This document shows, one piece after another, positions 5,901 to 30,333 of a stretch of DNA of 35,354 bases. Location: UHGV virus genome UHGV-0125936. One strand, given 5' to 3'. The notes beneath the pieces were generated by a model. The model saw only the letters and a list, made by a program, of their open reading frames with translations, was not told where the DNA came from and made no database searches. The translations under genes and the position numbers were made by a program. Numbering within the stretch: the first letter of the stretch is position 1; every line of letters begins with the position of its first letter. The stretch is from a virus.

Positions 5901-8900
5901 TTAAACTCCCTTGATTAATCGCCACAGAGGCGAGCCCGGCATGCTGGCCTGTTCGTTAATGACGCCAGTGATGGCATCTTTCAGTTGTCTGCCAGCGGCG
6001 CCGGCGGTTCCCTGACTTGCTGCCTGTGGTGATCCACCCTGAATATTGATATCGCCGAAGTTAACTGAAGGCACACCGCCGGAGACCTGCGGAGTACCAA
6101 CTGCCCGAACGCCCAGCGAACCATCAGCGGCGCGCGTAAGCGGCATAATGGCTTCCGGACCAGCCTCGGCAAAAACGCCTGCGCCTTTGGCAAAAGCAAA
6201 CAGCTGAGGCGTCTGAAAAACGCCATTGCTGTAAGCGCTCAGGGACGGAGAGTCGTAAACATTACCCTTCGCATTAAAGGTAAAGTTCGCGCCGGCATTC
6301 TGAATAGCGGTACCGCTGCTGGCGGTTGCGGCTGACGAGGCGCCAAAACTGAACAGTGATCCAATTGAGCTGACGCCATTAGCAACAGCCATATTCACCA
6401 GGACGTTCTGGATAATCTTCAGTACGCTGACGCCCCAGTCCTTCCAGCTGTCAACGTTGCCATTGAGCATGTCGGTGATCGTGGTGACCGCGCCACCCAT
6501 GGCCTGCTTCATGCCGTCAGCGGCCATGGAAGAATAATCAGTAGCTTCGTCCACCCAGTTCGCATAACCCTCAGACAGTCCCGTCATCCAGTCGTCACGC
6601 TGCGCATCAGAAGCTGCGTAATATCCCTCCTGGTCGAGCAGGCGCTCTTCGAGGTAGCGCTTATTAAGTGCCAGCCCCTGCTGATAGAACGTCTCGTCGA
6701 TTTCACCAGCCTGACGCTGGCGGAGAAGATCGGTATTCTTCTGCTCAAACTCCTTACGCAGATTGAACTGCTCCTGAAGTCTTTCACGGAACCTGGTTCC
6801 CTGCCCGTATCCCAGCAGTTGCGCTTCATTGGCTGCGCGGGCGCTGGCGTTACTGTCGGCAAGGTTGGCTTCGTAATTTCGCAGTTGCTCACGTAATTTA
6901 ACCTGGTCAATCAGCGTAGCATTCTGCAATACCGTCTTTTTCTGGGCTTCTGTCAGAGAAGCAAGTTCGCCCTGGCTGACCTGGTATTTAACCTTCGCCA
7001 GTTCAGTATTCTGGCCTTGCAGGGCAATCTGCTCTTTTTGCTGTTTGATCAGCTTGTCATAGGCATCAGCTGTTTTTTCCGCCTCGGATTTCCCGCCCTT
7101 ATGGCGGCTTGAGTCACGAATAGCTTGCAACTGCCTGGCTGACTCAACTTCCATGCTGACATACTTCTCACGCCAACCAGCAGGGAGATTAAGGTCAGAT
7201 GCATCGAATTCCGCCTGCTTGCGGGTTTTGTCCAATCCCTTAAGACCGGACAACTCAAGCTGTCGCTGCGCCTTGTCTATAGCTTGCTGCTGCTTATTAT
7301 CAAGTGCAGGAAGTACAGGCCCTGCATATTTTGGTGGGGACACTGCTGTAGACTGTCTGGAAACCTTGTTCAGACGGTCATACATCTCTGTAAGAGAACT
7401 TACGGCGCCAGCCATTTCTACTGTTTTATTTATAGCCTGATCAGTTATGTCGTTTATTAACTGTTGTGTTTGCTTTCTTTTATTGAGCATTTGCTCAAGT
7501 CGGCCTTCTTCAACCGCAAGTTCTGAAGCAAACTCTGCTGCTTTCTCAACCGCATCGTTATACAGCCATGTTCCCTCTGAAGCAGAATTGGCTGCTAATT
7601 TTGCGTTATAAAGTTGATTGGATAATTCAGCAACTTTCTGCTTCTGCTGTTCAATCGCACTATTTTGAGCATCCAGTGAAATATTCGCCTGTCCAAGGTT
7701 GGCGGATATCTGCGTCTGAGACATTGATTTCAGATTATCTCGTACCTGCTCGATTGTGTCCGCATATTGGATTGCAGATTCCCTGGCTTGTTCTTGGCGT
7801 TGATACATCATGTACCACGCCCCAGCACCCAACATTAAAATTCCTGGCAAACCACCAACTAACGACAAAAGCCCCGTAGCGCCAGACTTGAATAAATTCA
7901 TTACCGATGTTGATCGGTTGAGTGCTTCTTGCGACGCTGATACTGCTTTATTTGACTGAACGAGAGTGGCATTGGCGGCTATCATTTCGCGCCGTTTGGC
8001 AATAGAATTTTGTGTAGCTGTCGCTTCTGCATTTGTGTTTTTTGCAAGTTCCAACTCGGATAGCGAGAGCTGATAAGCACGCTCGGCAGCAATCGCATCT
8101 GCTGCCGCCTTTCGTTGTGATTGGGTAGCAGATTCAGCCCTTGCAGATGCGAGCGCAATTTCGTTCTTTCTGGCATCTATTAATTGCGCCGTTTGGTTCC
8201 CAAGATCGCCAAACATCCCTCCAAGATAGCGAGCTCCACCTATTGCAGCCAAAGCTCCGGCAGCCGTAGCCACAGTGTCGATATTGTCAGAAACTGTATT
8301 CAATACAGCAACAAGAGCACTTGTCGCACCAGTAGCTTCATTAGCTCCACCTACCCATGCCATGAAAGCATTTTCGACTTTCGTCGTGGCAGCAGAAACG
8401 GTCTGCGGCATTGCCTCAAATTCACCACGCATAGTGCCAAGTTGACTTATCAGGGCCGGGACAACTTTATCTGCGGTTAGCATCCCCTGATCGGCCATTG
8501 CCTTCAGATCTTTACGAGCTACACCCATCCCAGCGGCCAGCGCACGGATAACTCGATCACCGTTTTCGTTAACAGAGTTGAATTCCTCGCCCCGCAGAAC
8601 GCCCTGAGCTAATGCCTGACTAAACTGGGTGATAACAGAACTTGCCTCTGCCGTGCTGGCGCCGGATAGCTTTAGTCCAGTAGAAATGGCCTCGGTTACA
8701 TCCAGAACTTGCTGCGAACTGTATCCGTATTCACGCATTGATGCGGCGGAACGCGCAAAAAGACTCGCATTATCAGAGAAGGCGGTTCCGGTTCGTTGGC
8801 TAATATCCATCAGCGCCCGCTGAGACTCCGTGAAATCATCAGACGATTGGGAAGCCTGCTTTAGCCTGGCATTAACAGAGCTCCATTCATCGGCCAGCGA

Positions 8901-28047: not shown

Positions 28048-28857
28048 TTACCAGTTGCAGTCTGACTGGCCATAATCTTGCTCACTGAACCCGGACACCG
28101 GCAAACCTCCAGACCTTCCGTTTGTTGGGCCAGACGGTGCCTGCCATGCCTCTTCGAAATGCCGATCGGGACCAAAGAAAGTCGCCGCCTGTTTCACGTA
28201 CTGTGTTCCAGCACTACCTGTAGCACGGACATAACCGGCATAACGGTTTACGCCAGCCAGCATTGCCTCAGTGGTAACACCGTCTTTAATTCGAGCTTTC
28301 CAGGCTTTCCAGGCAGCGGCCTTGGAATTACCACCAGCACGTTTTGGGTATGCCTGCCATGCCTGCTCGAACTCGTTGGAATAGTTTCCCTTGGAAGAGC
28401 GATTTTCAGAATCGTTGTCAGATGAACCGTTATATTTAGGTTCTATGACTGATTCATTGACTGGTTCAAAAGAGTGACTGATTCTGGGTGCAGCTCCTGC
28501 ACTACCCCCTAGTGAATCTCCTGCACTATGGGGTGAATCTCCTGCACCAGGTAGTGAACTATTTGCACTACCCCCTAGTGAATCTCCTGCACTACTGAAA
28601 TCAAGGCGATAAACATTACTTGAGTTACCTTTTGGCCCCGGGCGAAGTTCTTTTTTTACCAAGCCGCATTCACACAAAGCATCAATGTGATTCATCACAG
28701 ATCGCTTACTGATTTCACACTGATCCGCTATGTGTTGATAGCTCGGCCAGCACTCACCGCGATCACTTGCGTTATCGGCCAACTTCAGGAGGACGAGCTT
28801 ACGAAGTGGATTACCTACCCTTACCTTCATTGCCTTAACCATCAATTCCATGCTCAT
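28048..28857 (-). CDS. Replication initiator (lambda O-like function) with internal ori iterons
   Basis: N-terminal winged-helix-like region (IADQCEISKRSVMNHIDAL); central repeated SAGDSLGGSA peptide encoded by DNA iterons; Trp/Lys-rich C-terminal domain. Confidence 0.65.
   Translation of the reverse strand: MSMELMVKAMKVRVGNPLRKLVLLKLADNASDRGECWPSYQHIADQCEISKRSVMNHIDALCECGLVKKELRPGPKGNSSNVYRLDFSSAGDSLGGSANSSLPGAGDSPHSAGDSLGGSAGAAPRISHSFEPVNESVIEPKYNGSSDNDSENRSSKGNYSNEFEQAWQAYPKRAGGNSKAAAWKAWKARIKDGVTTEAMLAGVNRYAGYVRATGSAGTQYVKQAATFFGPDRHFEEAWQAPSGPTNGRSGGLPVSGFSEQDYGQSDCNW
28498..28593. repeat. Origin iterons: 30-bp perfect direct repeat at 28498-28527 and 28564-28593 with a third 15-bp core copy between
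   Basis: Direct repeats read in sequence inside the initiator gene, as lambda ori lies within O. Confidence 0.6.
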
Positions 28858-28935
28858 GCGACACCCGCCAACACATTTTCGTTACTGAATTCAGCAAACA
28901 GCAAAGGCTCGCTGACGCAATAATGCCGTGACATG

Positions 28936-29148
28936 TCACACTCCTGAGGATGGGGGGAAAATATCCTCGATAGATAAGTTCTTACCGTTTTTTCTCAATA
29001 CTTCTACCAACTGATGGCATGTTTTAATATCAGGAGTTCGCCTTCCTGATTCGTAATGGCCAATAGAACTAATAGTCTGACCAATTTCCTCAGCCAGACC
29101 ACGCTGGGTAAGGTGAAGCGATAGTCTTAATTTTCTAAGATTGTTCAT
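28936..29148 (-). CDS. cro: Cro-like HTH repressor
   Basis: 70 aa; HTH LTQRGLAEEIGQTISSIGHYESG; divergent from cI; RBS GAGGAGG. Confidence 0.75.
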   Translation of the reverse strand: MNNLRKLRLSLHLTQRGLAEEIGQTISSIGHYESGRRTPDIKTCHQLVEVLRKNGKNLSIEDIFPPSSGV

Positions 29149-29256
29149 GGGTCCTCCTCATAGGAGAATCAAATGTACATTATGTAGTTTACATAATCAA
29201 ACAAATTGTACATATTGTGCATTGAGGAAAACTACACAAGGTGTATCATTTAGACC
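29149..29256. promoter_or_regulatory. OR-like region: divergent pR/pRM with TGTAC-core operators
   Basis: Palindromes aatgtacatt (29172-29181), tatgta-gtt-tacata (29181-29195), aattgtacat (29204-29213); candidate pR TTGATT/TACATT on - strand; candidate pRM TTGAGG/TATCAT ending about 7 nt before cI ATG. Confidence 0.55.
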
Positions 29257-29922
29257 ATGAAAAAACACTGGAACGAACTGGCTAAAACCAGACTGGCTGC
29301 GCTTGGAATGACCCAAGCAGAACTCTCTGAGAAGATGGGTGTAACTCAGGGTGCAATGGGCCATTGGCTTAACGGGCGAAGAAGTCCATCGCTAGCAGAC
29401 GTTGGCTCTATATTCCAGATCCTTGGAATATCTGGGGCTTCCATAAATCCAGACGGGACTTTCACTGTCTCGGAGGATCTAACCCTACCCCCTGTTAAAC
29501 AGCAGTATGAGTACCCCCTATTTACAACAGTGCAAGCTGGTCAGTTTGCTGATGTTGGAACGTTTACTGAGCGTGATGCTCTCCAGTGGATTCCTACAAC
29601 CAGAAAAGCTGGGCCGGACTCGTTTTGGCTTGAGGTAAGCGGGCATTCAATGACAGCCCCGCCAGGAACAAGACCAAGCTTCCCAGAAGGTATGTTGATT
29701 TTAGTTGATCCATCTGAGGATGTTGAACCAGGGGATTTTTGTGTTGCCGGCATACACAACGATTCAGAGGTTACTTTTAAGCGTTTCGTTCGAGAAGATG
29801 GTCAACCATGGCTGGAACCGCTAAACCCAAACCCTCGCTACCAAAGCATACCCTGTAATGAAAACTGCAGGATCATAGGCAAAGTAGTAAAAGCCCAATG
29901 GCCAGAAGATACTTTTGATTAA
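29257..29922 (+). CDS. cI: CI repressor (HTH + S24 LexA-like autopeptidase)
   Basis: N-terminal HTH ([23 protein letters not shown]); QAG candidate cleavage site; C-terminal GHSM...FKRF Ser-Lys dyad. Confidence 0.9.
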
Positions 29923-29939
29923 CCCTACCCACCCTTGAA

Positions 29940-29966
29940 GGCCGCAAATTATGCGGCCTTTTTTTT
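29940..29966 (+). terminator. Intrinsic terminator after cI
   Basis: 7-bp stem ggccgca/tgcggcc, loop aatta, followed by 8 T. Confidence 0.7.
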
Positions 29967-29982
29967 ATCTAGTGGTTACTAA

Positions 29983-30117
29983 AATTACATGATGTAATTT
30001 ATTTCCTCTTAATATTCATACACTTTGTACAAAAAGATGAAAATAATGTACGTTGCGTATAGACACAGGCATGTACGTTTTGTAGTATTCATTCATCGGC
30101 AAATAACGGAGCCTAAA
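29983..30117 (+). promoter_or_regulatory. OL/pL-like operator-promoter region
   Basis: 17-bp palindrome aattacat-g-atgtaatt (29983-29999), 10-bp palindrome tttgtacaaa (30024-30033), direct repeats atgtacgtt at 30046-30054 and 30071-30079; exact promoter hexamers not resolved. Confidence 0.5.
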
Positions 30118-30333
30118 ATGAATACTGAAACACTTAAATCAGAAAACGGTACGATTCATCAATTAGCTATGGATATTGATCGCGTCATTAACGCGCTTGA
30201 ATATGCTGAGTCAGATCCTGAGGTAGCATACAAACCCGCAGCACTCATTAAAATCTGTATCAATCAGCTCAAAAAAAATCTATCAGTTTTAAATAACGAT
30301 CTTGGGCACGATTGGCCGGAGAATAAGTCATGA
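30118..30333 (+). CDS. Hypothetical early protein
   Basis: 71 aa from MNTETLK with RBS GGAG; AT-rich. Confidence 0.45.
   Translation: MNTETLKSENGTIHQLAMDIDRVINALEYAESDPEVAYKPAALIKICINQLKKNLSVLNNDLGHDWPENKS

Follow-up and report, generated by a model that had tools for sequence, protein, structure and literature searches.

The window, by which we mean the whole 35,354-nt stretch of viral DNA analyzed here (UHGV-0125936), covers most of a lambdoid prophage. A 108-bp gap at 29149-29256 separates a cro-like gene on the minus strand from a divergent cI gene on the plus strand. The first-pass annotation had placed its region of interest between cro and cI, and the limits it gave coincide exactly with the gap between a minus-strand HTH_3 open reading frame (ORF) and a plus-strand ORF encoding HTH_3 and Peptidase_S24 domains. 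The cro-like gene is followed, on its own strand, by those for a replication initiator, a DnaC-like protein, and DnaB, in that order, and other minus-strand content of the window includes a tape-measure-size ORF and head- and terminase-size ORFs. On the plus strand, cI is followed by a terminator and an early-left operon closed by a 437-aa ORF, which we take to be a possible integrase. The 78-bp gap between cro and the replication-initiator gene (28858-28935) lacks any cII-size ORF, and a search of Rfam returned zero family matches across the whole window. The coordinates of all features are collected in Table 1.

Table 1. Genes, operator sites, and candidate promoter elements in and around the cro-cI gap (window coordinates; distances are relative to the cI ATG).
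Feature	Positions	Strand	Sequence or basis
cro-like gene	28936-29148	-	70 aa; HTH_3 (Pfam, E = 2.6e-12); all-helical
Shine-Dalgarno of cro	29153-29159	-	GAGGAGG; read from the sequence
pR -10 candidate	29172-29177	-	TACATT; TTGATT-17-TACATT scores 8/12
OR1 (predicted)	29176-29186		TACAT-T-ATGTA, perfect 11-bp palindrome; exact TACRTNNYGTA match; centre 29181, -76
Palindrome	29179-29197		ATTATGTA-GTT-TACATAAT, perfect 8-3-8; overlaps OR1
pR -35 candidate	29195-29200	-	TTGATT; plus-strand CAA (TTG of the -35) invariant in 12 relatives
OR2 (predicted)	29209-29219		TACAT-A-TTGTG; one mismatch to TGTACRTNNYGTA; centre 29214, -43
pRM -35 candidate	29222-29227	+	TTGAGG; TTGAGG-16-TATCAT scores 9/12; TTGAG invariant in 12 relatives
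OR3 (predicted)	29235-29245		CACAAGGTGTA; minus strand TACACCTTGTG, TAC-ACCTT-GTG; centre 29240, -17
pRM -10 (predicted)	29244-29249	+	TATCAT; 7 nt before the cI ATG
cI gene	29257-29922	+	221 aa; HTH_3 + Peptidase_S24 (Pfam); lambda repressor match
Intrinsic terminator after cI	29937-29961	+	10-bp stem, 6 G-C pairs, T run; kept in relatives
OL4 (predicted, accessory)	29986-29996		TACAT-G-ATGTA; inside perfect 9-1-9 palindrome 29982-30000
OL3 (predicted)	30019-30029		TACAC-T-TTGTA; TGTAC half on minus strand; found in each of the 12 family members, at exactly 30 bp from OL2
OL2 (predicted)	30049-30059		TACGT-T-GCGTA; abuts pL -35
OL1 (predicted)	30074-30084		TACGT-T-TTGTA; in pL spacer, overlaps pL -10; in all 12 relatives, 25 bp from OL2
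pL candidate	30060-30088	+	TAGACA-17-TAGTAT; 9/12; conserved in relatives

Two further features of the minus-strand genes were observed. Within the replication-initiator ORF (28048-28857, minus strand), five direct repeats with core TGAATCTCCTGCAC are spaced 21-24 bp apart between 28474 and 28594, and they are probably origin iterons, like lambda ori inside gene O. In the cro leader, a CUCCU-AUG-AGGAG hairpin (29151-29167, minus strand) could cover the cro Shine-Dalgarno (SD) sequence. We rejected this hairpin as a meaningful structure, as its folding energy of -6.9 kcal/mol was no better than that of shuffles (z = -0.98).

The source prophage is one of the Enterobacter cloacae complex. Enterobacter sichuanensis WCHECL1597 encodes a protein with 100% identity to its cI, and the exact 221-aa sequence, which is found on 64 contigs, is listed in NCBI for this complex under the name 'LexA family transcriptional regulator'. 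The viral contig IMGVR_UViG_2765235946_000002 carries an identical right operator (OR) region. At 90% identity or more, cI belongs to a cluster of 45 members with names drawn from Enterobacter, Citrobacter, Klebsiella, Salmonella, Kluyvera, and Buttiauxella. Megablast of positions 28900-30120 returned only a 42-bp match inside cro from the phage collection and none from complete E. coli genomes, so the switch region is without a close nucleotide match in either collection. A contig labelled as a Bacillota MAG (JAEZIN010000021.1) has an enterobacterial cI/cro region of the type found in the Stx phage Nil2, with the same operator layout, and its label likely reflects mis-binning or contamination.

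Alignment to the lambda repressor structure 3bdn_A (E = 3.4e-60, residues 14-220) indicates that the repressor is a true lambda cI homologue. The linker and C-terminal domain are 58% identical to lambda and the N-terminal domain 24% identical. Motifs for self-cleavage are present (VQ-A94-G95, G-H-S131-M, and T-F-K175). In the same alignment, Gln31 of cI falls on lambda Gln44, where the recognition helix begins, and the acidic Glu25 falls on lambda Asp38, a residue that is part of the positive-control patch. Cro shares 34% identity with the N-terminal domain of cI (E = 8e-12), by which measure it is a paralogue of the cI DNA-binding domain.

The first-pass annotation had described three operator sites built on a TGTACA core. 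Three sites do lie in the gap, but TGTACA occurs there only twice (at 29174 and 29207) and the third site is not based on it. We rejected TGTACA as the recognized motif, since it is not enriched and occurs in the window at chance frequency (5 found versus 5.9 expected). In contrast, the extended motif TACRTNNYGTA has 8 strand-matches at 5 places where 0.47 would be expected, an enrichment of about 17-fold, and none of 100 shuffles reached 8 matches. Four of the five places fall in two control regions, being either in the cro-cI gap or just past the cI terminator, and permitting one mismatch adds 29207-19 and 30019-31. The operator core is better described as an 11-bp TAC-N5-GTA/G, usually with TGTAC as one half. 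Because TGTAC is the usual form of one half, the earlier wording of a TGTAC core was a fair description of a half-site. An exact match to the operator core, TACATCATGTA, also occurs at 7804-7814, within the tape-measure-size ORF of 1088 aa. It equals the OL4 core in reverse complement and may be due to chance given the 0.47 matches expected per window.

The three sites in the gap bear distinct relationships to the promoter candidates. OR1 lies inside the pR spacer and overlaps the pR -10, while OR2 is positioned between the -35 elements of pR and pRM and ends 2 bp before the latter. OR3 overlaps the pRM -10 TATCAT and matches the core only as TAC-N5-GTG. A 13-bp palindrome, TACAC-AAG-GTGTA (29233-45), was considered as the third site and replaced by the 11-bp register at 29235-45, which is preferred because it is kept in loci L021 and L023 and matches the spacing of all other sites.

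To place these sites in context, we retrieved 90 related loci, among which the close family comprised 12 non-identical members for comparison. Within this family, OR1 is near-invariant, TACATATTGT of OR2 and ACAAGGTGTAT of OR3 are invariant, and the OR3 register in L023 has the full consensus TACACCTTGTA. Conservation at this distance discriminates poorly because close relatives are 87% identical across OR, and the argument therefore rests on three or four more distant subfamilies. These include two sister subfamilies with cI 66-70% identical (L022 and L024) and the Stx phage Nil2, whose cI N-terminal domain is 54% identical. All three have sites that differ in sequence yet occupy the same positions, at -75/-76, -43, and -16/-17. 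A site of different sequence stands at the OR1 position in each, the middle site of Nil2 is also centred at -43, and the OR3 position is held by canonical palindromes (TACGCCGCGTA in L022, ATACGAATCGTAT in L024, and TACAGAGCGTA in Nil2). The complete Nil2 series reads TACAATATGTA, TACACATTGTG, and TACAGAGCGTA, centred at -75, -43, and -17. Positions kept with differing sequences provide the strongest support that the predicted operators are real.

The predicted switch extends past the cI terminator to a four-site left operator (OL) and pL promoter at 29986-30088. OL4 occurs as TAC-N5-GTA in 5 of 12 family members and in a degenerate CAC form in three more. The outer TAC and GTA of OL2 are kept in the 12 relatives (GTG in L023), with the central 5 bp taking 10 forms. 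Across the 12 members, the OL sites combine fixed 30- and 25-bp spacings with constant outer triplets and a freely varying central 5 bp, and this pattern of constant triplets around a free centre has the look of a dimeric HTH operator. A GGAG SD and then an ATG at 30118 follow downstream of pL. Separately, a perfect 10-bp inverted repeat (AGTATTCATT at 30084-30093 and AATGAATACT at 30117-30126) has one arm in the region of the pL -10 and the other at the start codon of the gene that comes first after pL, and it is partly kept in relatives that share this gene.

Both strands of six representatives were scanned for every -35/-10 pair. Only the plus-strand pRM and minus-strand pR candidates keep their positions across subfamilies. 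For pRM, the -35 begins at -35 and the -10 ends at -8 or -7 from the cI ATG, with equivalents of the -10 in relatives being TATTAT, AATAAT, or TATAAT located 6-7 nt from the ATG. At pRM of L024, the scan yields no -35, and only a TATAAT -10 is recognizable. The position of pR is kept in the window, L021, L023, L022, and L024 (-35 at -56 to -58 and the end of the -10 at -83 to -86 relative to the cI ATG), and the sole minus-strand candidate in Nil2 is elsewhere (-51/-79). Transcription from pR would be expected to begin near 29165 and that from pL near 30095. Two other candidates, TGCACA-17-GATTAT on the minus strand and ATCAAA-18-CATAAT on the plus strand, were rejected as promoters as they are unconserved outside the close family.

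The cI start codon at 29257 is secure in view of three observations taken together: an in-frame TAG at 29251-53, which means that there is no upstream start, coverage by the HTH_3 domain from residue 10, and an N-terminus (MKKHWNEL) that is conserved as far as Mannheimia. The first-pass annotation had reported a TATCAT ending about 7 nt before this ATG and a lack of SD. Both statements hold, as TATCAT is separated from the ATG by the 7-nt TTAGACC, and there is no GGAG, GAGG, or AGGA within 16 nt upstream. The sole SD-like string is AGGTG at 29239-43, which is 13 nt from the ATG. Comparison with the 32 other genes of the window underscores both features: an SD-like motif is present 4-16 nt upstream in 25 of them and no such tetramer precedes cI, and a -10-like hexamer at a distance of 6-7 nt upstream of the ATG is found in none of the 32. 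As a background for that geometry, 1.6% of ATG trinucleotides in the window have such a hexamer at a match of at least 4/6, and 0.3% at 5/6.

The same arrangement recurs among relatives. Of 19 representative cI relatives, 16 have a TAnnnT hexamer at a distance of 6-7 nt upstream of the ATG. Among these 16 are groups whose operators are of the lambda-like TATCACCGC type and whose layout is the lambda-type ...GGTGATAAATT-N6-ATG. The placement of the -10 at the ATG known from lambda cI is shared by many immunity groups within the clade to which this repressor belongs, which is a modestly useful comparative result. In the 12 close relatives, the gap between TATCAT and the ATG is constant in length at 7 nt even though its sequence differs at 5 positions, and pyrimidines always occupy the two positions just before the ATG. 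The lambda cI mRNA from pRM is leaderless (PMC10491246). The cI mRNA of the window is likewise predicted to be leaderless, a prediction that is well supported in silico, with transcription probably starting at or within ~4 nt upstream of A29257. The start could be G29253 or A29254, which would give a leader of 3-4 nt instead of none.

A homologue in Mannheimia indoligenes (locus L010, 2925-3003) represents a natural leadered counter-example with an acquired SD. It retains TAC-N5-GTA sites and an adjacent AATAAT, but a leader of ~25 nt lies between the AATAAT and the ATG, and GGAG occurs 7 nt before the ATG. Since sites and hexamer are both kept despite the inserted leader, the -10-like hexamer goes with the operator and promoter rather than with the ATG. 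We infer that in enteric phages it is the cI ATG that is placed at the transcription start.

A different origin for the cI message is conceivable, because a second plus-strand promoter candidate, TTTACA-17-CATATT (29188-29216), attains the same 9/12 score as the proximal pRM. Were cI transcribed mainly from this promoter, its mRNA would begin near 29223, with a leader of ~33 nt, and be translated by way of the weak SD-like AGGTG, and TATCAT would be no promoter element at all. The TTTACA is kept in 11 of 12 close relatives, and AGGTG is able to pair with the 3' end of 16S rRNA. Yet the candidate is absent in L022, L024, and Nil2, in which the matching -10 positions are without the key A (CGCATT, CGAATT), and AGGTG is both 13 nt from the ATG and without a counterpart in the sister subfamilies. 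Furthermore, the candidate overlaps OR1, OR2, and the palindrome at 29179-97, and its -10 is inside OR2, which means that in a lysogen it would be silenced by cI. We consider this origin for cI mRNA unlikely. At most, the upstream candidate could be an establishment promoter operating alongside pRM.

Slightly less likely still is that the operators are the two TGTACA sites with the palindrome at 29179-97 as the middle one, and that the sequence over TATCAT is no operator. The palindrome is a perfect 8-3-8 repeat, and 11 of 12 close relatives retain its TGTA-GTT-TACA core while the outer arms vary. It nevertheless overlaps OR1 by 8 bp, making simultaneous occupancy impossible, and its half-sites face outward (GTA-N3-TAC), an orientation that none of the other seven sites shares. 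The L022, L024, and Nil2 subfamilies lack an equivalent of it, whereas all three have a canonical palindrome over the -10, and every OL site is of the TAC-N5-GTA form. Given the overlap, orientation, and absence from sister subfamilies, the palindrome is probably not an operator of the TAC-N5-GTA type. Conservation of GTTTAC may instead reflect its position beside OR1 or within the pR spacer, or a role as the -35 of the upstream TTTACA candidate. That the repeats are chance features of AT-rich intergenic DNA with no regulatory role, as the chance frequency of TGTACA alone would allow, is very improbable given that the extended motif is ~17-fold enriched and clustered in two promoter regions, with its positions conserved in relatives having different sequences.

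Every computational test that we ran agrees with the proposal in the first-pass annotation of an OR-type region with a pRM-like promoter and leaderless cI mRNA. We therefore favor the reading of 29149-29256 as the right operator of a lambda-type immunity switch with a leaderless pRM transcript of cI, to which we assign a probability of roughly 0.72 on sequence evidence. At the sequence level, the locus combines the elements of such a switch: a repressor whose N-terminal part is an HTH domain and whose C-terminal S24 domain is of the self-cleaving kind (Ala-Gly site and Ser/Lys dyad), a small divergent Cro-type regulator heading the replication operon, three related sites between these genes over two divergent promoters, and a second operator cluster at a pL-type promoter.

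By analogy with lambda and 434, dimers of cI would fill OR1 and OR2 to turn off pR, and cI at OR2 would stimulate pRM, in keeping with the centre of this site at -43 and with the acidic Glu25 at the position of lambda Asp38. The imperfect OR3 over TATCAT would be filled by Cro or by excess cI, switching pRM off and resulting in negative autoregulation. RecA-stimulated cleavage at Ala94-Gly95 would lead to prophage induction, and OL and OR, separated by ~0.85 kb, may loop via the lambda-like C-terminal domain. Transcription from pRM would start at the A of the cI ATG or no more than ~4 nt ahead of it, and translation would proceed without an SD, as with lambda cI. The maintenance mRNA is considered leaderless because of this inferred position of the pRM start at or near the A of the ATG.

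The resemblance to lambda encompasses a repressor homologous over nearly its full length with a C-terminal domain that is 58% identical, divergent cI and cro genes with three operators between them, a middle site centred near -42/-43 of pRM, and a third site over the pRM -10. It further includes a -10 located 6-7 nt from a cI ATG that has no SD, a second operator cluster at pL, and a terminator after cI. Unlike lambda, the operators are TAC-N5-GTA rather than of the 17-bp TATCACCGC type, the N-terminal domain of cI is only 24% identical and is without the first ~13 residues of lambda repressor, and Cro is an all-helical HTH_3 paralogue of cI rather than having the lambda Cro fold. OR1 and OR2 are 33 bp apart (32 in L024) as compared with 24 bp in lambda, OR2 does not overlap the pR -35, and the pRM hexamers are stronger and nearer to consensus. 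The OR-OL distance of ~0.85 kb and the absence of a cII-size ORF between cro and the replication gene also belong among the differences.

Owing to the 33-bp spacing and the displacement of OR2 from the pR -35, cooperativity and repression geometry may differ from those of lambda. A bolder version of the lambda-type reading would hold that the switch has no CII/pRE pathway, relies on cooperativity across three helical turns, and uses a four-site OL, making it a structurally distinct variant of the lambda switch. The CII/pRE-free part derives from the missing cII-size ORF, the near-consensus pRM, and the second, cI-repressible promoter candidate. We regard this version as doubtful, if less so than the alternatives weighed above. 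In our preferred reading, the region appears to be an ordinary lambda-type switch with an uncharacterized specificity. It adds one uncharacterized immunity specificity to a well-known kind of switch, leaving general understanding unchanged, and gives experimenters precise coordinates for the sites.

Among annotated phage modules, the closest is that of Stx2 phages of the Nil2, 2851, YYZ-2008, and CP-933H type, in which cI and cro are annotated, and Stx phages of E. coli O157 carry a related module. Shared with this type are a cI N-terminal domain that is 54% identical and a Cro that is 54.5% identical, as well as TAC-N5-GTA/G sites at -75, -43, and -17 from the first ATG and, in Nil2, an AATAAT located 6 nt ahead of this start codon. 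The operators differ in their central and flanking bases, and Nil2 has an annotated cII. Our literature search found no operator study for the Nil2/2851 type or for the Enterobacter type described here. As in phages 434 and P22, the repressor and Cro have an HTH_3-type fold in common and presumably read the same operators, and Cro of the window resembles those of 434 and P22, rather than lambda Cro, in being a paralogue of the cI N-terminal domain. Unlike 434 and P22, the C-terminal domain of cI is lambda-like here, and the operator sequences are unrelated.

The start of cI in Nil2 (locus L091, AJ413274.1, 890-910) takes a different form. Two ATGs occur two codons apart, the first being 6 nt after the AATAAT and the second, which is the annotated start, being preceded by AAGGA at SD distance. 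Translation from the first ATG would be leaderless, and the pair suggests two modes of initiation, on leaderless and leadered transcripts.

Gene calling is also affected by the start of cI. Several Enterobacter hormaechei records contain a 188-aa version of cI named 'P22 repressor protein c2', which would lose part of the HTH. The lack of an SD ahead of the true cI ATG is the probable reason for this wrong start, and genes of this kind are usually annotated in truncated form. The predicted leaderless start would thus explain why some pipelines shorten cI to 188 aa.
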